Below the pieces are notes generated by a model. That model worked only from the letters and a program-made list of their open reading frames with translations. It searched no databases and was not told the origin of the DNA. A stretch of DNA of 64,000 bases from an uncultured Alphaproteobacteria bacterium (GTDB taxonomy: Bacteria; Pseudomonadota; Alphaproteobacteria; JALCBB01): positions 41,726-105,725 of the forward strand of contig OY279575.1 in assembly GCA_958267355.1 (NCBI GenBank). The letters are read 5' to 3'. This document shows, in pieces, positions 10,052-56,499 of the stretch (the first letter of the stretch is position 1; every line of letters starts with the position of its first letter). The position numbers and the translations under genes were made by a program.

Positions 10052-10143
10052 TCCCTGCTAACCCCTAAACCTTGTCCCAACCCCCACCCCCCACTATAAT
10101 ACAAAACCCCACCCCCACCCCACCCCAACAGGAGAAGAGTCAA

Positions 10144-11319
10144 ATGAGTGAGACACAGGAAGGTGAAATAGGAAAAAATGAAGCCGCAAAAAACGAGCTT
10201 CAAAGCTTAGATTTAGACCTTACAGAACTGGTCACCTTTTTTGACAAGAAAGATGATAAAAGCCAAGGCCACGCGACTGCCTTGGTATCCATCTTTGGTG
10301 AGGAATTAGCGATTGCACTTCTACGTGTTTATTGCGAGGCACAAGGATACGGCTTTAAGGTATTAGAAAATCTGTGTAGCAGAAGAAAACAAAAAGGAAA
10401 TCGGTTAGACGCTTGGATTAGGGTTGATACGGAGAAGAAAGGCGGGCCTATCTATTATTTCCAAACAGAAATTAAAAATTGGAGTGCACACGCTATTGGC
10501 GGAGAAGACATAGACCTTTGCATAAAAGACAACAAGTGGAATGAAGTAAGATTTGAAAGATTTAAAAGTGAATTTAGGGCTTGCCATATTCCTGAGGGAA
10601 GTGAAAAATTGAAAGACATTGAGTTAAAGCGTGGAAAGGGTTTCACAGAAGAAGAGAAAAAAGAAAATATATGCGAATGGAAAAGAATTTTAAGAAGCAG
10701 CAAAAGTAAAATTTCTTACGAACCAAACAACCGTGCCTTAGGAAAAGTGATTTTAAATATGACAGAAGGTTTCAATAGGCGTAAACCTTTCATAAAAGAA
10801 TATGAAAAAGAATATACAAAGGAATATAGTTTCTCTGTAAGAAAGAAGAAAGGTAATCTTGTAGAAAGAGGGAAGTTCGTAAAAAAGAAAGGAGATGATG
10901 TCATAGAAGAAAGAAATTTATCTGAAGAAAAATCAGTTAAAATATGTCCGCTAATTTGCTACTGGTTTGCACTTTATCCGCGCCCAGAAGTAGGCGAATA
11001 TAAAGAAGCAATTGAATATGATGATATAGATGAATTTTTCCATTCAGATGAATTCTTTAACTTAAAGCTTCTCGGCAAGAACGATAGCAAGCTTCCCAAG
11101 AAAGGAAGGCGTGTGAGTGAAGATTTTGATCGGCTTTATGTTTTTTCTATGTCTAGCTTTGCAAGAAATTTGTTAAAGGGTGATTACCCTGAAATTGTAG
11201 TTACAGATTCCAAAAAAATTGAGATTAAGATGAAAGTTTTAGGGAAGCGACAAAAGTGGATTAACAAAATCTTCCCTGAAACCGACAAAGAGCCTAAAGA
11301 CCAAAGCCCAACCGAATAG
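10144..11319 (+). CDS. Lys/Glu-rich hypothetical protein with a PD-(D/E)xK-like nuclease motif
   Basis: ATG at 10144 is preceded by AGGAGA; the track ORF starts at 10072 inside a C-run. Motif: GEELAIAL ... RLDAWIRV ... YYFQTEIKNW (E...D...ExK). AT-rich. Confidence 0.5.
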   Translation: MSETQEGEIGKNEAAKNELQSLDLDLTELVTFFDKKDDKSQGHATALVSIFGEELAIALLRVYCEAQGYGFKVLENLCSRRKQKGNRLDAWIRVDTEKKGGPIYYFQTEIKNWSAHAIGGEDIDLCIKDNKWNEVRFERFKSEFRACHIPEGSEKLKDIELKRGKGFTEEEKKENICEWKRILRSSKSKISYEPNNRALGKVILNMTEGFNRRKPFIKEYEKEYTKEYSFSVRKKKGNLVERGKFVKKKGDDVIEERNLSEEKSVKICPLICYWFALYPRPEVGEYKEAIEYDDIDEFFHSDEFFNLKLLGKNDSKLPKKGRRVSEDFDRLYVFSMSSFARNLLKGDYPEIVVTDSKKIEIKMKVLGKRQKWINKIFPETDKEPKDQSPTE

Positions 11320-30575: not shown

Positions 30576-33500
30576 TTAGGCGGCGGTTTCCTTCGCCACT
30601 TCTTCCAACGCGGATTCTATCGCTTCTAAGGCAGGTTTTGCTCCTGCCGTGTTAGGCCCGCCCCCTTGGGCGAAATCATCGCGCCCGCCACCGCCTGTGC
30701 CGCCAAGGGCTTCACTCCCCCGCCGCACCAAGTCAATCGCCGAGATACGCGGAGTTAAGTCTTTGGTGACACTGACCACCAGCGAAGCCCTGCCTTCATT
30801 CACCGACACAATTGCCGCCACCCCTGACCCCAAATCCCCCTTAATCTTATCCGCCATCGGCCGCAACTCCTTCGCAGGAATATCCTTAACTTCTTTGGCT
30901 ATAAGATGAAAATCACCAATTGCCTTGCCCTTTGCATCTTTTTCTGCACATGCATGGTTTAATTCAGAAAGGAATTGTTTACGAAATTCGTCACTAGGAT
31001 TCATTGAAATTGCTTTTGCAAAATCTGAAATAGCAAGATCATACTCACCTTTTTTTCGATAGACTCCACCGCGCAAAGAGTAAGCGTGCGGCTCTTCACT
31101 ATTTATAGCGATAGCCTTGTTAAAATCTTCAATAGCACGATCATATTTACCTTCCACTGAATACATAGCCCCGCGATATATATAAGGCAACAGATGGGTG
31201 TCGTTTAATGAAATTACCATACCAAAGTCCTTAATAGCGTGTTCAAAATCTCTCTTTTGCATATAGGAATTACCACGAGCAAAATAAAACGAAAGTTCTT
31301 CTCCTTTTAAGGAAATTGCCTTATCAAAATCTTCAATGGCACGATCGTGTTTGTCCTTTTCTTGATACAAAGAGCCCCTATCAAAGTAAAATTGTGGATT
31401 ATCGCTTTCCAGTGAAATTGCTTTACTATAATCTGCAATAGCAGAATCATATTCGCCTTTTTCGTAATATGCCTGCCCCCGCTCATAGTACGTTCCAGAC
31501 CCCTTATCGCCAAGCTGAATCGCCTTATTATAATTTGCTATGGCTTCATCTATCTCCCCCTGCTCTTTATAAATCGCACCCCGTTTGGAATACAGATGGG
31601 GATTTTCTGCATCCAATGAAATTGCTCTGTCCAGATACGGAATAGCATATTCAGGAAAGCCCCAATCAATTTGATCATCCGCTACGCTACTAACTTCCGC
31701 AACCAAGTCGCGACGGGCTTTTTCCAAGTCACGTTTTAGAGCCTTGTTTTCTTCGGTTAGAGCCATAGCACGAGCAGTTATTTCTTCACGCGAAGTAGTG
31801 AATATATCTGCAACTTCGGTAACGCGACTTTCCTGTTCGCGTAAGTAGTATATGGCGGCTTGGTCAGCCACAGCGGTGATGCGGCGGATACCTGCCGCGA
31901 GTGACTCTTCTTTGATGATGTGCATAAGGCCTATATCGCCCGTGCGGCGGACATGGGTACCGCCACAAAGTTCGGTTGAGAAATAGCCCGCAGGTTTTGC
32001 CCTGTCTGTGTTACCCATTGAGACGACTCGCACTTCGTCTCCGTATTTTTCGCCGAACAGGGCTAGTGCGCCCGCGCGTTCTACGGCTTCTTCGGGTTGC
32101 ATCAGACGAGTCTGCACTTCGCGATTGGCACGGATATTCGCATTCACTTCGTCTTCTATGGCTTCCAACTGCTCTTTGCCAACAGGCTTCGGATGTGAAA
32201 AGTCAAAGCGCAATCTATCTTCGGCGACAAGTGAGCCCTGCTGGGTTACATGGTCTCCCAAGACGCGGCGTAAAGCTTCGTGGAGCAAATGTGTCGCCGA
32301 GTGGTGACTCCGCAAACGCGCCCGCCGCTCGCCGTTAACCTGCATTTCTAAAGTATCACCTTCACGCAAACTGCCCGATACGATTTCGGCTTTGTGTAGG
32401 TGCAAACCCGCTCCGCGTTTTTGCGTGTCGGTGATTGTCAGGGTTAAGTCTGAACCCATCGCCGTGCCTTTGGCTGTGCCTGTATCGCCTTCTTGTCCGC
32501 CCGACTCGGCGTAAAACGGAGTCTGATTACACAAAAACTCGCACGACTCTCCCGCCTTGGCTTGGTCTAGCGGCTCGCCATCGCGCAGAAGCTTTGTCAC
32601 CACCGACTCCGCCCGCTCAGTTTCGTAGCCCAAAAACTCGCTTGCCCCCAACTGCTCAGAAAGCTCTAGCCAAATCGCCGAAGTGGCTTCTTCTCCCGAG
32701 CCACCCCAAGCGGCTCGCCCTGCCGCACGCTGGGCTTCCATTGCCGCGTCAAAGCCCGCCGTATCAACTGTTCGGTTTTGTCCGCGTAGAATATCTTGCG
32801 TCAGGTCAAGCGGAAAACCATAGGTGTCATACAAGCGAAACGCCGCTTCACCCGACAGCAACTCACCTTCACCCAACTTGTCGGTTTCACCTTCCAGCAC
32901 CTTCAAGCCACGAGCCAGCGTTTCACCAAAACGCGACTCTTCGTTTTGTAAAGTGTCAGTAATCAGTGCTTCCGCTCGCCCCAGCTCGCCGTACGCTTCA
33001 CCCATTTCGGCAATCAAAGTCGGCACCAAGCGGTAAAGCAACGGCTCTTCAGTACCCAACAGGCGGATATGCCGCATCGCCCGCCGCAAAATACGCCGCA
33101 GCACATAACCCCTTCCCTCGTTGGAAGGCAAGACTCCTTCGGCAATCAAGAACGCCGAAGCCCGCAGGTGGTCAGAAATAACGCGGTGCGAAACCCCGCC
33201 ATTGTCGGTGGCAGTGGTTTCAACACCGCTCAAGTCCGCTACCTTGTTGATGAGCGGCGTGAAAAGATCAGAGTCAAAGTTATCGTGACTGCCCTGCAAA
33301 AGTGCCGAAATACGCTCTAAGCCAATGCCCGTGTCAATGCAAGGCTTGGGTAAGGGATTTTGTCCGCTCGCGTCGCGTTCGTACTGCATGAAGACAAGAT
33401 TCCAAATCTCAACAAATCTGTCTCCGCCTTCATCGGAAGCCCCGGGTGGTCCGCCTGTGAATTCGGCTCCGTAATCGTAGAAGATTTCAGCGCACGGACC

Positions 33501-34019
33501 ACACGGGCCCGTATCTCCCATCGCCCAGAAGTTGTCGTCGGTGGCAATGCGGATAATCTTAGAGTCAGCAAAGCCCGTGACTTTTTTCCAGATCTTAAAG
33601 GCTTCATCATCGTCAGCATAGACCGACACCAAAAGCCGCTCGGAATCTACGCCCCACTCCTTAGTGATTAAATCCCACGCCAGCGGAATTGCCAGCTCCT
33701 TGAAGTAATCGCCAAACGAGAAGTTACCCATCATCTCAAAAAAAGTATGATGGCGCGTGGTGTAACCCACATTTTCTAAGTCGTTGTGCTTGCCGCCAGC
33801 CCGCAGACACTTCTGCACAGTGACCGCCCGCGGATGCGGCGGCTTTTCCAGCCCCGTGAAGATGTTTTTGAACTGCACCATCCCCGCCGAGGTGAAAAGC
33901 AGAGACGGATCATTACGCGGCACCAAAGACGACGAGGGCAAAACCGCGTGGTCGTGGCGGGCGAAGTAGTCCGTGAAATGACGGCGGATTTCTTTAGCCG
34001 TGGCGTGGGTGGCAGTCAT
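30576..34019 (-). CDS. alaS: Alanine--tRNA ligase carrying an internal array of ~7 TPR units
   Basis: Likely start is ATG at 34019 ([19 protein letters not shown]); the track ORF starts at 34076. Catalytic, editing (HSATHLLH) and C-Ala ([13 protein letters not shown]) domains are present. The TPR block maps to about 30930-31690. Confidence 0.9.
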
Positions 34020-34169
34020 AGCGGAAGCAGGGTGATTCTGCGGCTTGGCGACAGGAGCAAAACCTTGCAGAATCATACAGACAAACCTGCCCGCCGACTA
34101 GCCCCGCCTGAGTCTGTGGGCTTTGCCTATCCTTGGCTATCCTTGGCGAGTCTTGCTGTTTAAGTAGCC

Positions 34170-35759: not shown

Positions 35760-36000
35760 TTTCCACAAGACAGGCAGAACACCCCCTACAGGACAAGCCC
35801 TGCGGGGCAAGCCGCGTATCCCCCGTCTTCGTCTCAAAAATGGGCAGTGGCTCAATTAGCCCCCCCCATTGAAATTATGGGGCGTGGCGGTTTGGCTCAA
35901 TTAGCCCTTCATTGAAACTATGGGGCGTGGCGGTTGGAGGAAGTAATAACGCTTGGCACGAATGCCGCACCGCAAGGTGCCCGCAAGGCGGACGCAAGGT
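35760..36000. repeat. GC-hairpin module tract, inverted relative of parts of 11400-11860, with an internal 44-bp tandem duplication
   Basis: 35893-35975 is the reverse complement of 11455-11537 (ggctcaattag...ggggcgtggcggttggaggaag...cacgaatgccgcaccgcaaggtgcccgc). ggctcaattagcc..attgaaaYtatggggcgtggcggtt occurs twice in tandem. Confidence 0.8.
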
Positions 36001-36001
36001 G

Positions 36002-36931
36002 CTAGGGGGCTTGGGATTTGGGTTTTGGGGGGTAGAGTTTTGGGTTAGGGATATTACCTCCGTCTACATAGATGGAGCTTGGTTCTTTCTTAGGCTTGTC
36101 GGGTTTCTTTTCGTAGGGGTTGCTCCAATCCATGCCGGCGTAGCGGTCTTCGGCTTCTACACGCAGCGCAATCTTCTTCTCGTGTGAAGAACTATTATCT
36201 ATCAAACGGCGGGTAGAACGGTAGTCTTCGGTCTCGCTGTACTCTTTGATATGTTCGTCAGGGGATAGATACGCCTGAGCTCGGTCGATTAGCTCTGCCA
36301 TAGTCGCGTCATCAACGATTTTCTTTCCCGCTACAACTTGTTCTACCAGCTCGCAGAACTGGGTCAGCTCGCGGATCATCTCGGTGCGGCGTATCGCTTC
36401 TTCTCGCCGCAGGTTTCGGCGGGGGGCTATGGTTTGTTTTTTATCAAAGGTTTCAGGCTCTACGAGCTTTCCGCGGGTGCGCATATTCTCTAAGGCTTCA
36501 GTTAGCCTGTTCATCGTCTCGGTCGTAATCTCTTGGTGGTGTTTGCGCTCTTGGTCGGTTAAACCTTCAGGCATAGGATTGAGCCGCAATAACTCTAGGT
36601 TAAACATTATGAGCTGGCGTTCATCGCGTCTTCGTTGGGCGTTAAAAGCCCTGCCTAAAGCCCGTTCCTTGGCGTTGGTTTCGTCTTCTTCCTGTATGGA
36701 GCGTTGGAGGGAAAGCAGGGCTTTAACCTCGTCTTCTAGCTTGTCGTTGAGCTGGGGCAGGAGTTGGGCAAGGTTAGCCCTGCGGACTTCAGCACTTTTG
36801 TCCGCCTGCCCTGCGTAGTGGTTGGCTAGGGATTCCGTCAGCAGTTCGGGGTCAAGGGCGGATAGGTATTGGCGCACTTCCTGCAGCTTGGCGGCTGTCG
36901 TTGGCTGGTCGGCTGGGCGAGTGCTGTGCAT
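36002..36931 (-). CDS. Hypothetical charged/coiled-coil protein
   Basis: 309-aa ORF with no recognisable motif. A C-run leader (ccccaaacccccaacc) lies just upstream of the ATG on the coding strand. Confidence 0.5.
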   Translation of the reverse strand: MHSTRPADQPTTAAKLQEVRQYLSALDPELLTESLANHYAGQADKSAEVRRANLAQLLPQLNDKLEDEVKALLSLQRSIQEEDETNAKERALGRAFNAQRRRDERQLIMFNLELLRLNPMPEGLTDQERKHHQEITTETMNRLTEALENMRTRGKLVEPETFDKKQTIAPRRNLRREEAIRRTEMIRELTQFCELVEQVVAGKKIVDDATMAELIDRAQAYLSPDEHIKEYSETEDYRSTRRLIDNSSSHEKKIALRVEAEDRYAGMDWSNPYEKKPDKPKKEPSSIYVDGGNIPNPKLYPPKPKSQAP

Positions 36932-37099
36932 GGGGTAATCCTTCGGTTGGGGGTTTGGGGGCTAATAGAGTTGCGAAATCTCCTATATAGGAAATGAGCC
37001 ATTTTCAGGCAGATTCAAATTTTTTACGGATTTTTGGGGCAAAAAAAGAGATAAATCGGGCGCAAATCTAGACTCACAGCCAAAAAATAAATTTAAAAA

Positions 37100-37897
37100 T
37101 AAATTTCCTGTGGCCTTCCCACCCATCCCCCCCAAGGTTTGCTTCGCGTCCTACGGACGCTCGCAACCCTTGACCCCCCTTTGCCCTGTGCCTGCCTACG
37201 GCAGACACAGCCCCTAGGGGGGTGTTAATTAGATAGTCCCCCTCTATATACAAAAAAAACAAAAAGAAAAAATGTAGAGAAATAAGGCCTGTTGCCTTCG
37301 CGCCCATAGGGGGGTGGCTAATTAATCAACCGTGTTCTTAAAAATAAAAAAATAAGATTAGTAATGTCTACGATCAATCAGCAAGCTTCGCCACGCGTGC
37401 CCGCTCGGCACTTCGTGCCTTCGCGCCCCTAGGGGGGTGAATTCCCTAATCAGCCCATATTTCTAAAAACTAAAAAAACATAAAGAAAGAAAATAAAAAA
37501 TCTTCGTAGGGTAAATTTTGAAACCTCTACCCACCCATCCCCCCCTAACTTTGCTTCGCAAAGTTAGACCCCCCTTTGCCCTCGCCACACTTCGTGTGGC
37601 TCGCCCCTAGGGGGGTGTTAATTAGATAGTCCCCTCTATATAAAAAAGAAAAACATAGGGAGAGGTAAAGAGAATAAAAGCAGAGAATAAAGACAGCAAA
37701 CCAAAGCGGGCGACTGCCCCCCTGTAAGGGGGGTAGGAGACAGCTTTGGCAGTTAGGGGGGAATATTCTCTACTTTTAAAAAAACGCCCCTGCGGGGCGT
37801 TCCCTCGCGCACTTCGTGCGCGCCCACCCCACCCCCCAAAATTTGCTACGCAAATTTTGACCCCCTCCGTCCCGAGGGGGTAATAGCTCTTGCATTT
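37100..37897. repeat. ~800-bp non-coding array of GC-hairpin modules separated by A-rich spacers
   Basis: cccacccatccccccc-[hairpin]-gaccccc modules at 37118, 37529 and 37823. Palindrome-containing box gcccctaggggggtg at 37211, 37303, 37425 and 37604. A ctaactgccaaagc-type element (reverse orientation) at 37701-37761. Confidence 0.85.
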
Positions 37898-39427
37898 CTA
37901 GGGGATTGTTGTTTTGTCCTCTGCTTTCAACGCGGCCTCCTGTTCTTTTATTTCTCGAAATAGTCTATACGCTCGGATGAGAGAATAAGCCAGAAAAGGA
38001 GACGCAATGAGAACTGTTAGAAGTGCTCCAACGACTGCTCCGATAAAAGCTTCATTAAAAAGCAACACAGAAAATCCGATAAATGCTCCCATAAGAGCCA
38101 TATAGATAATCCAATAGGGAGCTATAATTAGGGTTGCTGTGAGAGTGAAGCCAAGAGGTAATCTAAAGGCACTAGGAAAAGCCCCACGGAGGACTGTGCA
38201 GAAAATTCCTATAAGTGCTCCGACAAAAGACCCGAAAGGGATTCCGTGAAAAGCTTCGAGAAAAGAACCATTGAAGAGAGAGGCAATCAATGCGCCAATG
38301 AAAGCACCAATATAAATTCCAATGAAAGAACCAAAAATAAGTCCAAATACGTTCACTCCCATAATCTTGAGAAAATCAGAAGGAGCGAAAGGAAGAACCA
38401 TAATGGCTCCCGCAAGAGCTCCGATAGTGGCTCCGATTAAAGCTTCAAAAAGAACTTCCGAAAGAACTTCAAGAATAGCTCCAGAAACAGCAAAGATTAA
38501 CACTCCAAAAATAGCTCCAGAGAAAGCCCCAGAAGAAAGTCTAAGGAGAGCTTTATCATCAATGTCATAAATACTATAAGGTCTAAACATTTCAACAAGA
38601 AATCCTATCAAAGCCCCAAAGGGAGCTCCATAGAGAGCTACACGAAAAGCACCTTCAAGACCTCTATCAAGAGCATTCCGATCAAGTCCTAAAGGCAAAG
38701 CCGCATTGAGACTTAAAAAGAGAGCCCCAAAGATAGACCAAAAGATTGCCGAATTTATTATTCCCCTTAAATTCGTTCTATAAAGATAATCAGAGCTGTT
38801 GGCTTTGGTAACGATCCTTTCGATTGCCTCACCAAGAATTCCAAGAATGGCCCCTAGGAAAGCTCCAGTAAGAGTTGCTATTAAAATTCCGATAGGAGCT
38901 CCATTAAAGTTCGCAATAATTATTCCTGAGAGTGCACCGTAGAAAGCCGCTACGATAACTCCAAAAAAAAGATGTAAAAAAGGTTGCGGAAAAGCCTTTT
39001 TAGAAGGGCTCTTGAAAAAATAATCGAAAAGCCAGTAACAAAGCCATGCAGAAATCGCAATAAATATTCCTTTTATAGCTCCAGCAGACGCTCCGAAAAA
39101 AAGCGCAATGAGAATTCCAGAAACAGCCATAAAGATAGCCCCAATAGCTGACGCTGAAAAAATGAAACTAGTGAATGAAGGTTTTTTCTTAGAGGGGTCT
39201 TCGAACTCAATTTCAAAAGCAAAGACAATTCCTACAAAAACACCAAAAATTGCACCCAATGAAGCCCCTAGGGCATACAATCTACGATAATTTTCCCACG
39301 CCTTAAAAATTTCTGTAAAAATCTCTTCTACCCAGTTCGTAGCAAAAATTCCGATGAGCCAATTCGTGATGAAAATTCCAGTAAGAATCCCAGCAATAAT
39401 TCCTCGGAGGATTATCTTGAGGCGCAT
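37898..39427 (-). CDS. Polytopic membrane protein built of reiterated glycine-zipper (GxxxGxxxG) segments
   Basis: Likely start is ATG at 39427 (MRLKIILRGIIAGILTG). Many segments like GAFLGAILGILG, GAPFGALIGFL, GSFIGIYIGAFIGALI and GAFIGAVVGALL. AT-rich. The upstream part of the track ORF is translation of a G/C-run leader. Confidence 0.7.
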   Translation of the reverse strand: MRLKIILRGIIAGILTGIFITNWLIGIFATNWVEEIFTEIFKAWENYRRLYALGASLGAIFGVFVGIVFAFEIEFEDPSKKKPSFTSFIFSASAIGAIFMAVSGILIALFFGASAGAIKGIFIAISAWLCYWLFDYFFKSPSKKAFPQPFLHLFFGVIVAAFYGALSGIIIANFNGAPIGILIATLTGAFLGAILGILGEAIERIVTKANSSDYLYRTNLRGIINSAIFWSIFGALFLSLNAALPLGLDRNALDRGLEGAFRVALYGAPFGALIGFLVEMFRPYSIYDIDDKALLRLSSGAFSGAIFGVLIFAVSGAILEVLSEVLFEALIGATIGALAGAIMVLPFAPSDFLKIMGVNVFGLIFGSFIGIYIGAFIGALIASLFNGSFLEAFHGIPFGSFVGALIGIFCTVLRGAFPSAFRLPLGFTLTATLIIAPYWIIYMALMGAFIGFSVLLFNEAFIGAVVGALLTVLIASPFLAYSLIRAYRLFREIKEQEAALKAEDKTTIP

Positions 39428-39965
39428 TGGTGAAGTCTCCTTGCTTTTGGGGATACTAACAAAAAGCCCGTCTAAACGGGGGATTAGGGTGGCGTTTGGG
39501 GGGGTGGTAGGTGGGGTAGGGGGTTTGGGCGGTCTTTTCGGGGGTTTTGGGCAGGAATTTGGGGGTTGGGGCTTGACATAACCCGTCAAAGGGCTAGGAT
39601 GGCGGGGCTTCCTTTTGGGAGGCTTTAGCGAAAAGCGAAATGAAGCACAGGGGCTGTGGGCCTGCGGGCTGGCTCGCCTCATATGCTTTTTTTGTGTGTT
39701 TTTTGTCGCTTTCGCGCGCGCCAGCTCTTGACCATTGTACATAACGGAGAAGATACGTGGGCAGCGATCTGTAGAGCCGTTGAGTCGTAACACTTTCGGG
39801 TGCGGCGACTTGGCAAAAAATATGGGTCACGCAACGCGTATTTTCGTAAGATTTTTACGCAAATATCACGTTGCTTATGTTGCGGACGGCTTTGTCGTCC
39901 GCAGCGAAGCGAGCGTGACCTGTCAAACGTTTGTTTGCTCGTATCCAACGAGTAAGCCAACAATC

Positions 39966-41468
<1,503 letters not shown>

Positions 41469-41723
41469 GGGGTTGGGTATTCTGGGGTTTGGCTATGCTT
41501 GGGTCTTGACTGACTCGGGCTTGCTTGAGTTTTGATTGACTTGAGCTTTTAGCTTGAACTTTGGCACCTGACTTTAAAGAATTGCTGACTTTGTCTTACT
41601 TGAATGGCTTGGTGCTTTTTACGGAGCACTTGGGTCTTTTTTGTGAGACGAGCGAGGCATAAAAAACCTGCTCGACAGTTCGCTGTCCTCGTACCTTCTC
41701 CGTTGTGCCTACTCAAGACCCCC

Positions 41724-41753
41724 AAAAGCCGCCCCCCAAGGCGGCTTTTCTTT
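41724..41753 (+). terminator. Intrinsic terminator-like hairpin plus T-run downstream of 16S
   Basis: aaaagccgcc-ccccaa-ggcggcttttctttg. Nearly the same hairpin as the one after 5S. Confidence 0.6.
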
Positions 41754-41883
41754 GTCTCGTCGGGGGCAATTTGGCTCTACCCAGTCAAATTGCTGAAAAT
41801 TAGCCAATTTACGCTGAATTTCTGTGTGCAGCCCCTACATATGGGGGTTTAACATTAGAGTGTTAACAAATCAGAAGGGCAAA

Positions 41884-41962
41884 TAAGTAACATTTTTCCT
41901 CCTTTTTGTTACTTAATCTCTTGTAAGTAACATTTATGTTAGTTAAATTCATTTAAGTAACA
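41884..41962 (+). promoter_or_regulatory. Four copies of the 9-mer TAAGTAACA (three direct, one inverted) upstream of the Fic gene; putative operator array
   Basis: Direct copies at 41884-41892, 41925-41933 and 41954-41962. Inverted tgttactta at 41907-41915. Confidence 0.5.
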
Positions 41963-41991
41963 AAAACCACGAAATTCGTTAGTTAGCCAAA

Positions 41992-43176
41992 ATGGACAAA
42001 AAACACAAAAAACAAAGAATTGGGAATTATGTAAGGAGCTCTGCCTCTGACACGGTGAGCTATCTGGCTTACATTCCCAGCCCGCTCCCACCAGACCCGC
42101 CACTGGATATGGCAGATCTTGCTCCTCTTTTAGAGCGAGCCCATATCGCCATCGGGCGCTTGGACAGTATGATCGATCCACTATCAGACTTTTCTTCGGC
42201 TTTGCGCACATACTTTATCCGTAAAGAAGCTGTTTCATCCTCTCAAATTGAAGGCACGCAATCGACCCTCTCTGATGTATTGGTGTATGAAGCAGGTGAC
42301 AAAAAATTAAACACGCCTATTGAGGACGCTATAGAAACTTTACGCTATGTTTATGCTATGGAATATGGATTAAAACGCATAAAAGATATTCCCATATCGC
42401 TACGTTTGATTAGGGAAGTTCATAAAAAATTAATGACTGATACACGTGGTCAAAATAAGCAGCCTGGTGAATTTCGAAAAAGCCAAAACTGGATTGGCGG
42501 GTCAAAACCAAGTAATGCCGATTTTGTGCCGCCGCCACCGAACCATGTGATGGATGGGTTAGATAATCTAGAAAAATTCCTCAATGACGAAAGAACGGAT
42601 CTGCCTGTTTTAGTCAAGGCTGCGATCACGCATGTACAGTTTGAAATTATTCACCCATTTCTTGATGGAAACGGCCGTTTAGGCCGATTGCTTATTATTT
42701 TCATATTGTGTGCGGAAGATATTCTTAAGCAACCTGTTCTAGGTTTAAGTTCATATTTAAAAACCAACCATAAGGGTTATTACAATCATCTCCAATCTGT
42801 TCAGGAAAAGGGCGATTGGGAGGCGTGGATTGAATTTTTCCTAACAGGTGTCATTGAAACAGCTGAACAGGCAATAGAGACTATGCAGGCAATCCGAACA
42901 CTCTTTGCGGCAGATAATGATAAAATAAGCAAACGCGGAAGATCAGCAGCAAGCGTTTTTAAGATACATGCCCACTTGGAAAAATATCCAATGACTACGA
43001 CACGGAAAATAAAAGAAGACACAGGTCTGTCGTTGCCGACTGTCCTGCGCGGATTAGAAACTCTGAAAACTTTAGATATTGTTAAAGAACCTGAAGTCAA
43101 ATCGAGAAACAGGGTCTTCATTTATAAAAAATACCTTTCTCTTCTAAACGAAGGCACAGAGCCTTTGCCAAGGTAG
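41992..43176 (+). CDS. Fic family protein (AMPylase-type) with N-terminal inhibitory motif and C-terminal wHTH-like region
   Basis: HPFLDGNGRLGR Fic motif. SSQIEG matches the (S/T)xxxE(G/N) auto-inhibition helix. Confidence 0.85.
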   Translation: MDKKHKKQRIGNYVRSSASDTVSYLAYIPSPLPPDPPLDMADLAPLLERAHIAIGRLDSMIDPLSDFSSALRTYFIRKEAVSSSQIEGTQSTLSDVLVYEAGDKKLNTPIEDAIETLRYVYAMEYGLKRIKDIPISLRLIREVHKKLMTDTRGQNKQPGEFRKSQNWIGGSKPSNADFVPPPPNHVMDGLDNLEKFLNDERTDLPVLVKAAITHVQFEIIHPFLDGNGRLGRLLIIFILCAEDILKQPVLGLSSYLKTNHKGYYNHLQSVQEKGDWEAWIEFFLTGVIETAEQAIETMQAIRTLFAADNDKISKRGRSAASVFKIHAHLEKYPMTTTRKIKEDTGLSLPTVLRGLETLKTLDIVKEPEVKSRNRVFIYKKYLSLLNEGTEPLPR

Positions 43177-43309
43177 GAGGTGGGGCAGACAAAAGAAAAA
43201 ACCGACACTAGGTGATTTTTGCTATCGATGCGCCAAAATGAACCAAAATGAAAAAGCCCTCCCTTAAGACGATCGGCTTTTTATTTAGCCCCCCAACCCC
43301 CTCGAGCGA

Positions 43310-43482
43310 AGCCCGCGGGGGCGTTTTTTAAGAGTAGAGAATATTTACCCCCCCCTAACTGCCAAAGCTGTCTCCTGCCCCCCCGCGCAGATCGTCTTGC
43401 GTCACGCGGAGCGGATAGCAAGCGAGATGCGCAAAAGTGTTGCGCAAGCGACACGAAAAGGCGGGGCAGTCGCCACCTTTGG
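43310..43482 (+). repeat. ctaactgccaaagc-type hairpin element with an expanded loop, preceded by a terminator-like hairpin
   Basis: Reads gcccgcgggggcgtttttt, then agtagagaatatt..cccccctaactgccaaagctgtctcctgccccccc, then about 78 nt of nested hairpins, then ggggcagtcgccacctttgg. Confidence 0.8.
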
Positions 43483-43601
43483 GGCAAAGTATGGGGGTTA
43501 GGCAGGCGTGAATCGGCTTGATTTCCGCCATTAATTCTACCCTTGCGGGAGGTACATATTTCGTCTTTAATTTAGAACCATTACTACTTTAGGGGGGATA
43601 T

Positions 43602-45947
43602 ATGAAGCAGTTTCTTCTAATTCTATCGGTAACGTTGTCGCTGTTGCTGTCAGCGCAGATGGTTTCTGCTCAAACCGATGAAGAGCCCAAAGAAATTACG
43701 GATGCAGAAGTTGAAGAGGCCAAAGAGTCGTTTAAAGATTTTTTGAAGTCTCTGGAGGATTCCCTGAAAGAAGCTGCTAAGGAAATTGAAGACTCCGAAG
43801 AATTTCAAGAGCTCAAAAAATCTGTCAAGGAGGTAGAAGATACAGAAGAATTTCAAGAGTTGAAAGAAGCCATAAAAAATTATGAAGACGAAGATGATTG
43901 GGACAAGATCAAAGAAGCGGCAAAAAAGCTTGAAGACTCCGACAAGGTGGAGGAGATCAAGGCGCAAGCAAAAGATGTTGAAGATTCTGAAGAGGTTCAA
44001 GGGCTGAAGGAAACGGTTAAGGGTATTGATGACAGCGAGCAGTTTCAAAAACTCAAGCGGGCGGTAAAAAATATTGAAAACTCGCAGGAGCTCCAAGAGT
44101 TAAAAGAAATTGCAAAAAATCTTGAAGACTCCGAGGCATTTCAAGAGCTCAAGGAAGTTGTCAAAAATCTTGAAGACATTGAAGATTTGCCAAGGCTCCA
44201 GCAGGCGATCAAAGATCTTGAAGACGCAGAAGAATTAAAGCAGCTGAAGGCTGCAGCAAAAGATCTCGATGACTCGGCGGAAGTCCAGACGCTGAAAGCG
44301 ACCATCGTTGAGACCGCTAACGAGCTCGGAGACCTTGAAGATCCCTTGCGTGCCACCACCGCCACAACGCAAAGCGCGGCGCAGACTGCAGAATCAACAA
44401 CACAAGAGGCAACAAACCAAGAGGCACAAGAATTTGCGAACCAAGATTCCGATGAGAACACAGAGGAAGACATTTTAGAATTTCTTGATGAAATTGAGTA
44501 CGAAGCAATTTCTAACTTTGTGACTCGTGGAGAATACGAAGCACTCACGACGAAGCAGCGGAAAAAGCTTACACAACTTGCGATTCAAGCGAAATTCTGG
44601 GGTGATAATCCTGAAAAGCTTGCGAAAATTCGTGGGGAATTTTCGGAAATCATAAACTCTGTTGCGGGTGCGCAAGCGGTGGCAGATTCCTCTGAGAAGC
44701 TGACGCTTGAAGATATAGAGGGGCTTTTTTCTCCTGGGGAATTTGAGACTCTTCCAGAGGCGGCGCAGGACAAATTTTTCAATCTTACATTCCGATTGGG
44801 ACTTGTTGAAGAGGACTCTGAAGCGTATCAAAAGATTTTGCGTGAGTTGATAGCTCTTGCGGAGTCTCCTTATGATGCGGCGACTACGGAGATTACAGAT
44901 GAAGACAGGCAAGAATTTGCTGAAGACTTTTTGGGTGCCTTGGGCAGAGAGTTGGGTAGGGGGCTTGGAGAATATTTAGCTTCTCCTGAAGTTCAAGAGA
45001 GTATATTGGCGACTGACGATACCGCTACGGATGATGCGGGCGACACTTCGGAGTCTTCTACGCCTCTTCCTTATACGGAGGGGTATGATTTTTATCCTGA
45101 AGAAGAGGAGTCATCTGACAGTTTAAATTTCTTTTGGGGGTTGATTGCTTTTGTAATAATTTATTTTGTTCCTTCAATTTTTGCGTCTCTGCGGCGGTCG
45201 CGTGCGAGCACGCCGCTTCTTATTGCTAATATTCTTGCGGGCTGGACGATTATTGGTTGGGTGATTTGTCTGTTCTGGGCAGTTTTCTCTGGTCGCGCCC
45301 CGAAAAATGAAACCAAGAATGAAACCAAAAATGAAGCCAAGAATGAAACAAAGGACGAGAAACTTGCACAAAGCGAAAGCAACATAAATCAGATCAACGA
45401 AAAACCTGAAGACAAGAAAGATCGCGGCGAGAAGAGTCAAGATGGGTCTGTTAAAACTGCACGCAAGAAGGGTGCGGTGGCGGAGTTTCTGATTACACTT
45501 CTTATTACTTTGGCTTTATTTTTGGTTGTGTATTCTATATTTTTGCTTGATATTCCAGGATCGATGGGGGATTATTTGTTGAATTATGTGTTGTATGGCG
45601 TGATGTATTTTACGCCGACATTTTTTGCGTATTATAACAAGACAAAAACATGTGGCTGGTTGTTTGTTGTTAACGCTCTTGCGGGTTGGACAATTATTGG
45701 TTGGTTTGTCTGTTTTGCTTGGGCGTTTTTCTCCCATCGCGAGGTGGGAGGCGAGCAAAACGCAGTGGGTAGCCAAGAGCAGCAACACGGATTTCTTTAT
45801 AGCTGGTTGTTTCTTCAAGACCCTGAAGAAATGAAGGAATGGAAAAAAGCGGTGAAAGAATTCATAGATGCTAAAAATGAGGCTATGAATGATGGCGGCG
45901 GAAATGGTAATGGCGGTGGGGGCGGCAATGGCGGCGGTGGCGGTTAA
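43602..45947 (+). CDS. Secreted/membrane protein: signal peptide, ~12 acidic 16-aa repeats, two superinfection-immunity-like TM hairpins, KNET repeats and a Gly/Asn tail
   Basis: MKQFLLILSVTLSLLLSAQMVSAQ. Repeat unit EDSEEFQELKxxVKxx. YFVPSIFASLRR..LAGWTIIGWVICLFWAVF and YFTPTFFAYYNK..LAGWTIIGWFVCFAWAFF. Confidence 0.7.
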   Translation: MKQFLLILSVTLSLLLSAQMVSAQTDEEPKEITDAEVEEAKESFKDFLKSLEDSLKEAAKEIEDSEEFQELKKSVKEVEDTEEFQELKEAIKNYEDEDDWDKIKEAAKKLEDSDKVEEIKAQAKDVEDSEEVQGLKETVKGIDDSEQFQKLKRAVKNIENSQELQELKEIAKNLEDSEAFQELKEVVKNLEDIEDLPRLQQAIKDLEDAEELKQLKAAAKDLDDSAEVQTLKATIVETANELGDLEDPLRATTATTQSAAQTAESTTQEATNQEAQEFANQDSDENTEEDILEFLDEIEYEAISNFVTRGEYEALTTKQRKKLTQLAIQAKFWGDNPEKLAKIRGEFSEIINSVAGAQAVADSSEKLTLEDIEGLFSPGEFETLPEAAQDKFFNLTFRLGLVEEDSEAYQKILRELIALAESPYDAATTEITDEDRQEFAEDFLGALGRELGRGLGEYLASPEVQESILATDDTATDDAGDTSESSTPLPYTEGYDFYPEEEESSDSLNFFWGLIAFVIIYFVPSIFASLRRSRASTPLLIANILAGWTIIGWVICLFWAVFSGRAPKNETKNETKNEAKNETKDEKLAQSESNINQINEKPEDKKDRGEKSQDGSVKTARKKGAVAEFLITLLITLALFLVVYSIFLLDIPGSMGDYLLNYVLYGVMYFTPTFFAYYNKTKTCGWLFVVNALAGWTIIGWFVCFAWAFFSHREVGGEQNAVGSQEQQHGFLYSWLFLQDPEEMKEWKKAVKEFIDAKNEAMNDGGGNGNGGGGGNGGGGG

Positions 45948-46000
45948 TAGAGAAAATGGGTATCTTTCCGCACGGGCGGTTTCTCACGATAAGGAGGGCG

Positions 46001-46930
46001 ATGAAAATGGGGCGTAGAAAATTTTTAAAGTCTTTAAAACGCTCCTTGAAGAAGGCGGCGAAGGAGGTAGAAGACTCGGACGAATTCCAAAAGCTCAAGA
46101 AGTCCGCGAAAGACTTGGAAGACTCAGACGAGTTTCAAGAGTTTAAAGAGACCGCGAAGAATGTTAAGTCCTCCGAGGATTTGAAAAAGCTCAAGCAGGC
46201 GGGCAAAAGGCTTGAAGACTCCGAGGCGGCAGAAGAGTTCAAGCAATCCGCCAAGAATGTAGAAGACTCAGAAGAATTCCAAAACCTAAAAGAAATGGTC
46301 AAAAACATTGAAGACACCCAAGAGTTCAAAGAGCTCAAAAAGACTGCCAAAAATCTACAATATCTCTACGATTTGCAGAGGCTTCAGGCGACGATCAAAG
46401 ATTTTGAAAACACGGCTGAAGTGCGGGGGCTTAGAAGGGCGGTCAAGGATATTAAAGCCACCAAAGAATTCAAGGAGCTTAAAGAAATCGCCAGAAATCT
46501 TAAAAACCTTGACGACTTGCGACGGCTTCGTGATGCTGTCAAAAAGCTTGAAGACTCTGCGGCGGTGCAGAAGCTTAAAGTTGCTGCCAAAAAGGTTGAA
46601 GATTCTGCAGAAGTGCAAAAGCTGAAGCAGGTTGCCAGTCGGGTTGAGGACAGCCAAGAGTTTCAAAAGTTTAAAGCGATTGCCAAAAACCTTGAAAGCT
46701 TTGACGATCTGGAAAAATTACAAGCGGCGGCGAAAACTCTTGAGGACTCTGCTGAGGTCCAGGGGCTTAAGCAGGTGGCGAAAGATATAGAAGACTCCAG
46801 CGAAGTGCAAGAGCTGAAGCAAGCCGCTAAAGATCTTGAAGACTCTGCTGAAGTGCAAGAAATTAAACAGGCTGCGAAAAGCCTTGAAGACTCTGCTGAG
46901 GTGCGAGAGTTGAAAGAAAGAGTGCAGTGA
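46001..46930 (+). CDS. Protein made almost entirely of ~18 copies of the same 16-aa acidic repeat
   Basis: AAGGAGG lies 5 nt upstream of ATG at 46001 (track ORF starts 45956). Repeats read EDSDEFQKLKKSAKDL / EDSAEVQELKQAAKDL and similar. Confidence 0.7.
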   Translation: MKMGRRKFLKSLKRSLKKAAKEVEDSDEFQKLKKSAKDLEDSDEFQEFKETAKNVKSSEDLKKLKQAGKRLEDSEAAEEFKQSAKNVEDSEEFQNLKEMVKNIEDTQEFKELKKTAKNLQYLYDLQRLQATIKDFENTAEVRGLRRAVKDIKATKEFKELKEIARNLKNLDDLRRLRDAVKKLEDSAAVQKLKVAAKKVEDSAEVQKLKQVASRVEDSQEFQKFKAIAKNLESFDDLEKLQAAAKTLEDSAEVQGLKQVAKDIEDSSEVQELKQAAKDLEDSAEVQEIKQAAKSLEDSAEVRELKERVQ

Positions 46931-47032
46931 GAGACGAAAAGTAGTAAAGGCTAGTGTTCGCGAAATTTTTGGTATGTGATATGCTGTATGGCTGTGCTAT
47001 CTTGTGCGGGCACTTTTAGAGAGGATTTTGAG

Positions 47033-48076: not shown

Positions 48077-48153
48077 GGGCCTGTAGCTCAGCTGGTTAGA
48101 GCGCACGCTTGATAAGCGTGAGGTCGGAGGTTCAAGTCCTCCCGGGCCCACCA
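48077..48153 (+). tRNA. tRNA-Ile (anticodon GAU)
   Basis: gggcctgtagctcagctggttagagcgcacgcttGATaagcgtgaggtcggaggttcaagtcctcccgggcccacca. Folds as a cloverleaf by hand, with encoded CCA. Confidence 0.95.
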
Positions 48154-48178: not shown

Positions 48179-50488
48179 TTAGTTAGCAGACTCGGTTGCT
48201 TGTTGGGCGGTTGAGACTTCGGCTTTGGGGCGGAAGGCTTGCCACATGAAGAGGGCGAAGGCGAAGACTCCCCAGGCGAAGACGACATCGCCTGGCACCC
48301 GCAGCCAGACCAGCGTTTCAATCAGCGGACTATGCAACAGCTCGGGCGAGCGGGCGGCTTGGTAGCCATCGCGGATGCTCACCCAAGTTTGAATCAGTCC
48401 TTGCGGAAGCAACGACAAGAAGGTCATCAAAAGCAAGCCGATGTTGAATGACCAGAAGGCTTGTTTGAGAAGGCCGTTGTTCCAGCGGCGCACATCGGTG
48501 AGTCCGCGCATGCAGTACAGGGTCAAGCCGAGTCCGAGCATGCCGTAGACACCGAACAAAGCGGCGTGTCCGTGGTTGGCGGTGGTGTTGAGTCCTTGCA
48601 TGTAGTACAGCGCAATCGGCGGATTAATCAAAAAGCCGAAGACGCCTGCGCCGAGAAAATTCCAGAACAGCACGGCGGCGAAGAACATAAACGGCCAGTA
48701 GTAGGTGTCTTCCCAGTCTAGGCCCGTTGTGTGCTTGCGCCGACTCCAGGCTTCAAAGCCGACGACGAGCAGGGGCACGACTTCTAGTGCTGAAAAAGTC
48801 GCCCCGACAGCAAGCACAGCTGTCGGAGTGCCTGTGAAGTACAAGTGGTGAAAGGTGCCAAGCACTCCGCCGAACAAGAAGATGATGGTGGCGAATAGCA
48901 CCATTACGGTCGCGACCGAAGCCCGCACCAATCCCATACGCACGAAGAGCAACGAGATGATCGCCGTGGCAAAAACTTCAAAGATGCCTTCTACCCAAAG
49001 GTGCACTACCCACCACCGCCAGTATTCGGCGAGGGCGATGTGGGTGTGTTGTCCGTAGAAAAGCCCTGCTCCGTAGAGCAGCCCGATGGCGATGGAAGAC
49101 ACCACCACCAAAAATATCAGCGAGCGGCCGACTTCGGGTTTGGTTAGGGCAGGCCACAAGCCACGCAAGACCAGTCCGAGCCACAAGAGCAAGCCGATAA
49201 ACAGGTAGATCTGCCAAAAACGCCCAAGGTCAATGTATTCGTAGCCTTGGTGTCCGAACCAATAGCTCGCGGTCAGAGACGAGAAAAGCCGATGCACCGC
49301 CGCCCATTCGCCGAAAAACGAACCCACAACAATAAGTAGCAAACTAAAGAACAGAAAGTTTACGCCGAACCGTTGAAACTTCGGCTCTTTGCCGCCGAGT
49401 AACGGCGCAACATACAAGCCACAGGCAAGCCACGCTGTTGCAATCCAAAAGACCGCCAGCTGCGTGTGCCAAGTGCGCGTCACAACATACGGAAAGTATT
49501 CAGCCAAAGGTAAGCCATAGACTCCTTGCCCTTCAACGCCGTAGTGGGCGGTGACAATGCCGCACAAGACCTGCAAGACGAACAAGGCGGCGACGATCCA
49601 AAAGAACTTGGCGGTCGCGCGCATAGACGCAGTCGGCACGACAGACGCGAGTCGGTCTTCTTTTGCGTAACCGTCTTCGGGTTCGCTGTCTTGCCGCCAG
49701 ATGTCAAACTGCTGGGCGTAGTACCAGACGATGGCTCCGATCCCTGCGAGCAGGAGCAAGATGGAAATCAGGCTCCACAACAAAGTCGGAGGAGTCGGCG
49801 TGTTATCAACCAAAGGTTCATGCGGCCAGTTGCTGGTGTAGGTGACTTCCTTGTCAGGACGGTTCGTCGTCGCCCCCCAAGCCGTCCAAAAATAAAACGC
49901 CGACAAGGCGCGGGCTTCGTCAGGCTCTAGATAGGCAAGAGCCGAAAAGGCATATTCTTCACGCAGGTGTTCGGCTTCTGCACTTCCGCCCGTATACAAG
50001 TCTAAGTAGTGCTGCTGAGTCTCGGCAATCGCTTGCGCACGGGCAACAGAAACCGTGATGGTCTTGGTCGCCGCATCGTATTCATTGCGGCGCATTTCTT
50101 TCGCCAGCCGCGCCCGATTGAGCGTATCGGTTTCTTCAGCCGAATTGCCAATACGAAACCTCTGGTTGTAAATGGCAAGCAACGCCGAAGCCTCGCGATG
50201 CAGCCAATCGGCAGACCAATCAGGAGCCAAATATCCGCCGTGCCCCCAAATTGAACCTTGTTGCATGCCGCCGATGGACTGCCAGACGGCTTGTCCGTGC
50301 TGAATATCTTCGCGTGTGTAGATGGTTTCGCCACTCTGCGCCCGCACAACCTCAGGTATAGGCGGAGCTTCACGGTAAATCTCCCGTCCGAGCAGCAGCA
50401 GCACGCTGAACATCACGACCATCCCGACTGCCAGGATGATCCACAAGCGGCGAATAGAAAAAGTGCTTTGATAGGATGCGGTACTCAT
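48179..50488 (-). CDS. norB: Quinol-dependent nitric oxide reductase, single-subunit qNOR type
   Basis: 769 aa: N-terminal TM plus periplasmic extension fused to a 12-TM heme-copper oxidase-like core with conserved His ligands (HLWVEG, HHLYF, HGHAALFG). Confidence 0.8.
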   Translation of the reverse strand: MSTASYQSTFSIRRLWIILAVGMVVMFSVLLLLGREIYREAPPIPEVVRAQSGETIYTREDIQHGQAVWQSIGGMQQGSIWGHGGYLAPDWSADWLHREASALLAIYNQRFRIGNSAEETDTLNRARLAKEMRRNEYDAATKTITVSVARAQAIAETQQHYLDLYTGGSAEAEHLREEYAFSALAYLEPDEARALSAFYFWTAWGATTNRPDKEVTYTSNWPHEPLVDNTPTPPTLLWSLISILLLLAGIGAIVWYYAQQFDIWRQDSEPEDGYAKEDRLASVVPTASMRATAKFFWIVAALFVLQVLCGIVTAHYGVEGQGVYGLPLAEYFPYVVTRTWHTQLAVFWIATAWLACGLYVAPLLGGKEPKFQRFGVNFLFFSLLLIVVGSFFGEWAAVHRLFSSLTASYWFGHQGYEYIDLGRFWQIYLFIGLLLWLGLVLRGLWPALTKPEVGRSLIFLVVVSSIAIGLLYGAGLFYGQHTHIALAEYWRWWVVHLWVEGIFEVFATAIISLLFVRMGLVRASVATVMVLFATIIFLFGGVLGTFHHLYFTGTPTAVLAVGATFSALEVVPLLVVGFEAWSRRKHTTGLDWEDTYYWPFMFFAAVLFWNFLGAGVFGFLINPPIALYYMQGLNTTANHGHAALFGVYGMLGLGLTLYCMRGLTDVRRWNNGLLKQAFWSFNIGLLLMTFLSLLPQGLIQTWVSIRDGYQAARSPELLHSPLIETLVWLRVPGDVVFAWGVFAFALFMWQAFRPKAEVSTAQQATESAN

Positions 50489-50728: not shown

Positions 50729-50804
50729 GGGGCCGTAGCTCAGCTGGGAGAGCGCCTGCTTTGCAAGCAGGAGGTCAGGGGTTCGAGCCCCCTCGGCTCC
50801 ACCA
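50729..50804 (+). tRNA. tRNA-Ala (anticodon UGC)
   Basis: ggggccgtagctcagctgggagagcgcctgctttGCAagcaggaggtcaggggttcgagccccctcggctccacca. G3:U70 pair present, with encoded CCA. Confidence 0.95.
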
Positions 50805-50881: not shown

Positions 50882-51349
50882 ATGACGGAAAACAGGAATG
50901 AATATAGGCTAACCCAAGAAATTATAGCTCTCTCTAGAGCTTCTGATTGGGATCGTGCGAAGCTTGAATGGATTTTGGAAGGTGTCTATATGGCGGACGA
51001 GCCTGAGACTTGCCTATGTGGCCATTTCCCTATTATCGAGATATGTGGCTTGAGAAATTTATATAACGACAATTATACAGAAGTAGGTAATGTCTGCGTT
51101 AAGAAGTTTTTGGGGTTGCCTTCGGATAAAATTTTTAGATCTGTTAAGAAAGTGCGAAAAGATGAAGAAAAATCATTAAATGCAGAGACGATACAATATG
51201 CTTACAACAAAGGATGGATGAGTATATGGGAGAGAGATTTTAGTATGGATACAATCCGAAAACTAAAGCCGAGTCTTAAACAGCTTGCTAAACGCGTTGA
51301 AATTAACCGAAAAATAATGCGAAATATGAGAAGAGGGGGTGGTAACTAG
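50882..51349 (+). CDS. Hypothetical small Cys-containing protein
   Basis: 155-aa ORF with AGGAGA RBS. Motif CLCGHFPI...GNVCVKKF suggests a metal-binding knuckle. Family not recognised. Confidence 0.5.
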   Translation: MTENRNEYRLTQEIIALSRASDWDRAKLEWILEGVYMADEPETCLCGHFPIIEICGLRNLYNDNYTEVGNVCVKKFLGLPSDKIFRSVKKVRKDEEKSLNAETIQYAYNKGWMSIWERDFSMDTIRKLKPSLKQLAKRVEINRKIMRNMRRGGGN

Positions 51350-51607
51350 AAAGGGTGCGCATAGCCCCAAAAAGTAAGGAATCTCCCTATCAAGCCTGAT
51401 ATAGGGTGGGGGTGGAATTTGGCGAGAATTGGGGGAGGAGCTCTGTATGGGGGGGGAATCCAAGGCTTTTTCGGGCGGGGCAAGCCCGCCGCTCAAAGCC
51501 TTGCTTGTCTCTATATATATTAGGAGAGGGGTTTGAATCCCCTAAAAATTGGCAGATTCGCTGAAGAGGTTGCGAATCGGTCAGTACAAACGGATATTGG
51601 GGGCACT

Positions 51608-53749: not shown

Positions 53750-56499
<2,750 letters not shown>

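Follow-up and report, generated by a model that had tools for sequence, protein, structure and literature searches.

A tetratricopeptide repeat array inside the C-Ala domain of an alphaproteobacterial alanyl-tRNA synthetase, and its length classes in co-resident strains

Our analysis concerns alaS, the alanyl-tRNA synthetase (AlaRS) gene in a 64,000-nucleotide stretch of DNA from an uncultured alphaproteobacterium (contig OY279575.1, positions 41,726 to 105,725, forward strand; this whole stretch is called "the window" below). The only AlaRS detected for this genome of about 1.86 Mb carries, in frame and in the hinge of its C-terminal C-Ala domain, a consensus-like superhelix of 6.5 tetratricopeptide repeats (TPRs), while its aminoacylation and editing domains are untouched and strongly conserved. 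This architecture is almost certainly real. The explanation we favour, and hold to be probable, is that it reflects a genuine TPR domain insertion in the C-Ala hinge which has moved between alaS alleles and serves as an accessory protein-binding or spacer module. Judged from sequence, an ordinary enzyme and an ordinary repeat domain seem to be joined here in a combination and at a position not described before, within the surveys made. The parts of the gene and the cognate tRNA are as follows (residue numbers refer to the 1147-amino acid (aa) protein unless stated otherwise):

30576..34076, minus strand: alaS open reading frame (ORF), a single uninterrupted frame of 1166 aa counted from the first ATG (ORF list)
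30576..34019, minus strand: alaS coding sequence, 1147 aa plus stop, with the start at M20 taken from alignment with homologues
32328..33992, minus strand: class II aminoacylation and tRNA-recognition domains, residues 10-564 (Pfam PF01411)
31878..32033, minus strand: tRNA_SAD motif region of the editing domain, residues 663-714 (Pfam PF07973; 682-733 in the 1166-aa numbering)
30887..31857, minus strand: allele-specific AT-rich block, residues ~722-1044 (blastn breakpoints against the insert-free allele L001, and G+C content at third codon positions, GC3)
31665..31862, minus strand: long-type helical (coiled-coil) subdomain of C-Ala, helices 720-739 and 744-785 (secondary structure of the AlphaFold2 (AF2) model)
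30924..31658, minus strand: TPR solenoid, residues 788-1032 (Pfam TPR_1, 102-nt periodicity, AF2, Foldseek)
30579..30929, minus strand: globular, DHHA1-like subdomain of C-Ala, residues 1031-1147 (Pfam PF02272; 1058-1158 in the 1166-aa numbering)
50729..50804, plus strand: tRNA-Ala(UGC), the substrate of AlaRS (ARAGORN), with the canonical G3:U70 pair read in the sequence

The window AlaRS is 252 aa longer than the 895-aa enzyme encoded by L001, the insert-free allele of a strain that is 98% identical to it. Six stretches of the protein match the Pfam TPR_1 family (PF00515, E 1.5e-46) as tandem 34-residue repeats with the unit consensus xxxYxxRGxxYxxKGxxDxAIxDFxKAISLxxxx. A half unit (F788-N806) is followed by six exact 34-aa units (residues 807-1010; 30990..31601) and a cap helix (1011-1032). 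An earlier sequence-only reading of this DNA, which had noticed the oversized enzyme, counted about seven units; the tandem 34-aa array is as it described, and the count is better given as six full units with a half unit and a cap. At the DNA level a repeat search finds 5-6 copies at an exact spacing of 102 nt; Tandem Repeats Finder reports no array, the units being too diverged from one another. The TPR genes nearby at 3-3025 differ from the insert in that they do encode a signal peptide or transmembrane segment, of which it has none.

In the AF2 model, built from a 26-sequence alignment (mean predicted local distance difference test score (pLDDT) 74; predicted template-modelling score (pTM) 0.38), two long helices (720-739 and 744-785) are followed by 14 helices between residues 789 and 1030 (pLDDT 88-96) and then by a beta-alpha globular domain (1032-1146). 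The predicted array has the form expected of TPR proteins, a superhelix of helix pairs closed by a C-terminal cap, and Foldseek superposes it on 9qhc, the crystal structure of an 8-repeat consensus TPR protein, with a root-mean-square deviation of 1.9-2.0 Å and a TM score of 0.83-0.86. Its best matches in the PDB, in sequence and in fold, are engineered consensus TPR arrays (9qhb, 8bu0, 2fo7 and 9qhc). The C-Ala fragment of Aquifex aeolicus AlaRS (PDB 3g98) aligns from about residue 1031, directly after the cap helix. Since helices 720-785 precede the solenoid and the 3g98-aligned residues follow it, and since in prokaryotic C-Ala the helical subdomain is responsible for dimer formation and the globular subdomain for contact with the tRNA elbow (PMC10036535), the TPR solenoid is placed exactly between the dimerising helical and the tRNA-elbow globular subdomains. 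Pfam, the AF2 model and the 3g98 alignment thus agree with the sequence-only reading, which had put an in-frame TPR array between the coiled-coil helices and the globular part of C-Ala.

The protein as a whole belongs to the alaS family. It scores 907.2 bits against the alaS equivalog model TIGR00344 of NCBIfam (curated cut-off 457), and PF01411 (tRNA-synt_2c) is matched with an E-value of 7.9e-204 over positions 1-551 of its 552 (residues 29-583 in the 1166-aa numbering). Foldseek matches the catalytic fragments of the E. coli enzyme at 54-55% identity, and the editing-site motifs H572, H573, H577, H580, C685 and H689 are invariant in the alignment of homologues. Both C-Ala subdomains are present, their usual contiguity broken by the TPR array of about 245 aa that lies between them. 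The AT-rich block extends into globular C-Ala and takes in its first strand (to about residue 1044), and the last 300 nt of the window alaS are 97% identical to the short allele at the nucleotide level.

The block that distinguishes the window alaS from L001 is larger than the TPR array. In blastn comparisons the two genes are 98-99% identical to residue ~722, the similarity is then lost until ~1045, and it returns at about 97%; between these breakpoints 971 nt of the window stand in place of 215 nt of L001. The G+C content is 0.33-0.39 at 30900-31500 vs 0.53-0.60 in the flanks. The rest of alaS has a GC3 of 0.60-0.61, against 0.30 for the TPRs and 0.37 for the linker before them, and the AT-richness is not merely an effect of amino acid composition because these third positions are low as well. 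For comparison, GC3 is 0.55-0.57 in neighbouring core genes of the window and 0.30-0.38 in the genes of its AT-rich islands. The sequence-only reading had recognized AT-rich DNA at 30930-31690; the compositional difference it saw is real (GC3 0.30-0.37 vs 0.60), and its limits have to be widened to 30887..31857. In the 971-nt block the coding frame contains 0 stop codons and each of the other five frames contains 12-38, a difference beyond chance. No other ORF of normal GC content in the window has an internal AT-rich block of this kind.

The TPR array shares the block with a diverged version of the helical subdomain of AlaRS and with the first globular C-Ala strand. The long-type linker (the helical subdomain as found in the window) is 86% identical in nucleotide sequence to that of a long allele from a second lineage, lineage B (below), and 51% in nucleotides or about 43% in amino acids to the short-type linker of insert-free alleles. 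As judged by eye in the alignment, the short-type linker resembles the linkers of outgroup AlaRSs more closely than the long type does, which suggests that the short form may be the vertically inherited one. No direct or inverted repeats flank the block in a repeat search, and there are no recombinase signals at its borders; its ends are alaS-homologous sequence. Because it also carries the diverged helical subdomain and the first C-Ala strand, the block in this genome is, on this sequence evidence, an alternative alaS allele and not a bare TPR insertion. The proposal that a foreign TPR module had been captured in frame is accordingly upheld in respect of its foreign-like composition and amended in its mechanism, which here appears to be allelic replacement of the 971-nt block. 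We consider it likely that the block originated in the foreign, flexible gene pool.

A closer source had been suggested for the array, namely the stand-alone TPR genes at positions 1-3025 of the window. The resemblance between them is just generic, at 37-41% identity; the alaS TPRs are 28-46% identical to TPR proteins of unrelated phyla and about 42% identical to the array of the lineage B long allele, so no special kinship with the genes at 1-3025 is indicated. The similar beginnings noted for the two, VADD in the insert and MADD in the genes, are a coincidence: sister long alleles read HERAEEQ or RERAEEQ at that position. What the insert and the stand-alone genes do have in common is that both are AT-rich, as the flexible gene pool is.

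Among 5.8 billion proteins searched, the window AlaRS has only a handful of close relatives, all of them from the same sample (ERZ19433661), and no other AlaRS in that collection is more than 66% identical to it. All copies lie at the same locus, in the order recA-alaS-thioredoxin/TPR_20-trkH-pyr_redox-uvrB. Two main lineages can be told apart among them, A, to which the window belongs, and B; their core alaS sequences are 85% identical in nucleotides. A lineage C, at 77-78%, is known solely from one low-quality contig of 14 kb (L005). The alleles come in three length classes, each of which is found in both lineage A and lineage B:

Short class, no TPR, 895 aa: L001 in lineage A (circular contig hifiasm-meta.s103.ptg000112c, 1.870 Mb) and L004 in lineage B
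Medium class, ~3.5 TPRs, 1038-1039 aa: L003 in lineage A and L167 in lineage B (circular contig hifiasm-meta.s61.ptg000063c, 1.841 Mb)
Long class, ~6.5 TPRs, 1147-1153 aa: the window in lineage A and L002 in lineage B

L005 of lineage C is a colinear long allele broken by frameshifts. Members of one lineage are 98% identical over the alaS core (nt 1-2150) and up to 100% identical in sequence windows adjoining the block. The medium alleles are equivalent to the short allele with a clean insertion of about 430 nt at the same site. It is thus very probable that the block of the window is one allele of a polymorphic segment with several classes.

Several other features of these loci deserve mention. 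The contig that carries L005 and another of 13.8 kb (L168), both from ERZ19433661, cover the recA-alaS-trx-trkH locus as well; a number of genes there are broken by many frameshifts, and at least four of those in L005 are clustered in the AT-rich TPR part of alaS. These frameshifts are likely errors of a low-coverage HiFi consensus, since other genes on the L005 contig are broken too; they may instead reflect pseudogenisation in a minor lineage. In lineage B (L002, L004 and L167) a spacer of ~500-650 nt, which holds a called ORF of 55-59 aa in two of the three loci (L004 and L167), separates alaS from the thioredoxin/TPR_20 gene; lineage A lacks this extra spacer, and the two genes are just 18 nt apart there. 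Upstream of recA the window (35767-39572) differs from L001 (462-4325) and L003, strains to which it is otherwise 98% identical: the window has ORFs at 36002-36931 and 37898-39793, and L001 and L003 have a DNA_methylase gene paired with an HNH-like gene.

The rates of synonymous (dS) and nonsynonymous (dN) substitution between the medium alleles of lineages A and B are as follows:

Core: dS 0.82, dN 0.041, dN/dS 0.05
Whole insert: dS 0.30, dN 0.076, dN/dS 0.25
TPR part of the insert: dS 0.29, dN 0.064, dN/dS 0.22 (unsaturated)

For the alaS core between the two lineages we obtain a dS of 0.80 and the same dN/dS of 0.05; for the TPRs of the long alleles dN/dS is ~0.27, with dS saturated. The TPR sequence evolves much faster than the core (dN 0.48 vs 0.039). 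These values point to an array that is constrained as a protein, though probably far less strictly than the enzyme core. The long-type linker, like the medium insert, shows a low dS between A and B (0.28). The blocks therefore look younger than the A/B split, although the composition bias of AT-rich DNA could contribute to the low dS, and their apparent youth suggests that they may have been exchanged between the lineages after these diverged. The long arrays do not follow their linkers in this respect: the TPRs of the A and B long alleles are about 42-43% identical in amino acids overall, with the adjoining linker at 86% in nucleotides, and because the repeat units are so much more divergent than the neighbouring linker it appears that the array of the long allele has been diversified or partly replaced.

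Other TPR-bearing AlaRSs were sought in several collections. No insert is present in the loci of 80 alphaproteobacterial species representatives of GTDB, among which the source organism has no close relative (none of those scanned exceeds 62% identity, the best value), or in 80 metagenome loci from the Joint Genome Institute, where the AlaRS tails are only ~40% identical to that of the window. A scan of 1.84 billion proteins provided the best 150 AlaRS representatives (41-66% identity), and in nine of the longest of these (980-1078 aa) Pfam finds no TPR. Within these limited surveys of genome, metagenome and representative AlaRSs, then, the TPR block does not occur in unrelated lineages; its presence in many of them is what the sequence-only reading had named as fatal to its proposal. 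When the C-terminal 426 aa served as query, generic multi-TPR proteins crowded the results and even the known sister alleles were missed, so this search is uninformative about other TPR-AlaRSs. A query made of the chimeric linker and cap had a single match, P0241, which was considered as a donor or silent cassette and rejected: it is a short allele with frameshifts, on a contig that covers this very locus and is full of errors. The AlaRS has no match among the anti-phage defence families of PADLOC. In the literature that we searched for TPR-bearing AlaRSs or other TPR-bearing aminoacyl-tRNA synthetases (aaRSs) none was found, in keeping with the earlier statement that no AlaRS of this architecture had been described.

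We turn to explanations in which the array would be no part of a working enzyme, both of which the sequence-only reading had listed among the outcomes that would refute it. An abrupt change in GC content within a gene has the look of a chimeric join, here of alaS with a TPR gene, but an assembly or sequencing artefact is close to refuted. The exact 1166-aa product is encoded on a closed circular HiFi contig of 1,859,045 bp, hifiasm.ptg000096c, from ERZ19433661 (two of the contigs read carry it); insert-bearing alleles were assembled independently on other contigs of the sample, long ones in lineages B and C and medium ones in A and B; and neither the reading frame nor the 34-aa register is disturbed, with sequence homologous to alaS intact on either side. 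Foreign DNA lying in frame within an essential gene is also the classic setting of an intein, and the block might be removed before the mature enzyme is formed, as an intein, an intron or a bypassed segment. This is extremely improbable. The insert is fully covered by TPR families, with no Hint or homing-endonuclease domain (Pfam, E<=0.01); an Rfam scan of the window at gathering thresholds returns the rRNAs and two tRNAs and no intron; and the inserted sequence is a canonical TPR solenoid, confidently folded in prediction, that is under purifying selection. No promoter-like site is found on the coding strand inside the insert, so there is no support for a separate TPR-C-Ala product either.

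If the array is indeed a domain of the enzyme, the sequence of events that we propose starts from the finding that the block would be one of three classes of a recombining, hypervariable alaS segment among the co-resident strains. The long allele was most likely brought into this genome by homologous recombination between alaS alleles, rather than by fresh insertion of a TPR gene, because its composition is that of the flexible pool and it comes with a diverged helical subdomain of its own; the TPRs would first have been captured at an earlier time and elsewhere. Translated as part of AlaRS, as its frame suggests, the predicted rigid superhelix with its concave groove may tether a putative protein partner to the enzyme or alter the reach of globular C-Ala. 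The array is presumably dispensable for charging tRNA-Ala, because nearly identical strains are without it, and yet it seems to be maintained as a folded protein. According to work cited in PMC10036535, an A. aeolicus AlaRS fragment without C-Ala charges a minihelix efficiently, and a natural mini-AlaRS without C-Ala exists. It is possible that the TPRs serve to bind something specific and are not just a passenger that the enzyme tolerates; we would put this at somewhat below an even chance.

Set against a working module is the idea that the array is a functionless passenger, selfish or accidental foreign DNA lodged in a permissive hinge, which drifts by recombination and whose disruption would cut off C-Ala. 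The existence of strains 98% identical in alaS and entirely without TPRs fits such a neutral origin, as do the minihelix and mini-AlaRS results just cited, the fast evolution of the array relative to the core and a composition like that of the flexible AT-rich islands. It does not sit well with dN/dS values of 0.22-0.27, with a 34-aa register and consensus positions that three lineages and both insert classes have kept exactly, or with the persistence of both insert-bearing classes in both lineages, which is unexpected of a slightly deleterious passenger; we regard it as unlikely, though to be taken seriously. A further alternative, in which silent partial copies of the 3' end of alaS are swapped by gene conversion into the expression site in the manner of pilin genes, would account for the presence of all three classes in both lineages, for block identities between lineages (78-89% in nucleotides) that bracket the 85% of the core, and for breakpoints in conserved alaS sequence on both sides. 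No copy of a short or medium block is found, however, either in the window (64 kb) or in the related loci (~100 kb), the sole candidate fragment (P0241) comes from the alaS locus itself, on an error-ridden contig, and recombinase or repeat signals are absent from the borders, so that switchable cassettes are very unlikely.

Several points also weigh against the favoured explanation, a TPR insertion that has moved between alleles as an accessory module. The apparent absence of TPR-AlaRSs elsewhere is known from surveys of limited size (the best 150 AlaRS representatives and 80 loci each from genomes and metagenomes), and with a pTM of 0.38 the geometry between domains in the AF2 model is unreliable. 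TPR units 1-5 of the A and B long alleles are only ~50-60% identical in nucleotides, so that the arrays are possibly not strictly orthologous. The open frame is perhaps kept solely for translation of the globular C-Ala downstream, and the TPR consensus residues are perhaps retained just to avoid misfolding; since retention of frame and consensus has these other possible causes, dN/dS is no proof of TPR function. A bolder form of the idea, in which the alaS hinge is a long-lived, balanced multi-allelic locus in both co-resident lineages (held by frequency-dependent selection or programmed gene conversion) and the TPRs have a non-translational task, for instance to sense or capture some host or phage protein or a toxin, is rather improbable on present evidence. 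If it were true, no AlaRS before this one would have recruited a new domain with a function, and no aaRS would have shown allelic variation of an antigen-like kind.

The case has some interest under any of these explanations. Strains about 98% identical in alaS that have 0, ~3.5 or ~6.5 repeats are matched natural controls for the role of C-Ala spacing and tethering in aminoacylation and editing. The presence of three classes in two lineages of one community poses a separate evolutionary question: which forces preserve structural variants of an essential housekeeping enzyme, or shuffle them? Even if the array is a mere passenger, it still shows AT-rich repeat-protein DNA of the flexible gene pool entering core genes.

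The window around alaS is itself a mosaic, with a core of GC ~0.52-0.60 and islands of GC ~0.33-0.45 (GC3 0.30-0.38) at 1-3025, 10072-11319, 37898-39500, 41500-47000, 50882-53245 and 61553-63973. The cargo of the islands includes TPR/membrane proteins, Fic, a methyltransferase, a UvrD/GajB-like helicase and ORFs without Pfam matches (10072-11319 and 37898-39793). The first island has two tandem AT-rich genes on the minus strand (3-1511, which runs off the window, and 1520-3025); in the products of both, a hydrophobic tail rich in lysine comes after the TPR array. The rRNA operon is split (16S at 39966-41466, tRNA-Ile at 48077-48153, tRNA-Ala at 50729-50804, 23S at 53748-56505 and 5S at 56745-56859), with ~12 kb of protein-coding genes between 16S and 23S. 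The AT-rich genes in this interval encode a SoFic-type Fic protein (41992-43176), a 781-aa protein with Imm_superinfect repeats (43602-45947) and a DNA methyltransferase (51533-53245); a norB-like gene of normal GC content lies there on the opposite strand (48179-50488).

Rickettsia palindromic elements (RPEs) are short palindromic repeats that occur in many dispersed copies, in frame within protein-coding genes. The alaS insert resembles them as foreign DNA tolerated in frame inside an essential gene of a reduced-genome alphaproteobacterium, where it adds a surface segment. It is unlike RPEs, and unlike miniature inverted-repeat transposable elements, in having no flanking, terminal or palindromic repeats and no further copies in the window or the related loci at hand, and in encoding a complete folded domain. 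Consensus-type TPR proteins, both the designed CTPR superhelices and bacterial multi-TPR proteins, provide its best PDB matches in sequence and fold; those proteins stand alone, whereas the alaS array is embedded in an enzyme. In comparison with the prototype AlaRS, all four domains are present, the editing H and C motifs are invariant, the tRNA-Ala has G3:U70, and the sister insert-free alleles encode ordinary 895-aa enzymes; the differences are the TPR solenoid of ~245 aa inside C-Ala and the deeply diverged, AT-rich helical subdomain.

AlaRS has been described as never having recruited a new domain (PMC10036535), and the window alaS is a natural counter-example. Many eukaryotic aaRSs, on the other hand, have recruited domains appended at the N or C terminus for non-translational functions (PMC10036535), and they share with the window enzyme the addition of a non-catalytic interaction module that leaves catalysis untouched; here the host is bacterial, the addition is internal rather than terminal, the module is a TPR array, and it segregates as absent, medium or long. 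Other exceptions to the AlaRS prototype have been reported (PMC10036535), namely the split AlaRS of Nanoarchaeum and a mini-AlaRS that lacks C-Ala as well as the editing domain. They demonstrate that the C-terminal architecture can vary while alanylation is kept; those cases are losses or splits, and the alaS insert is the gain of a domain.

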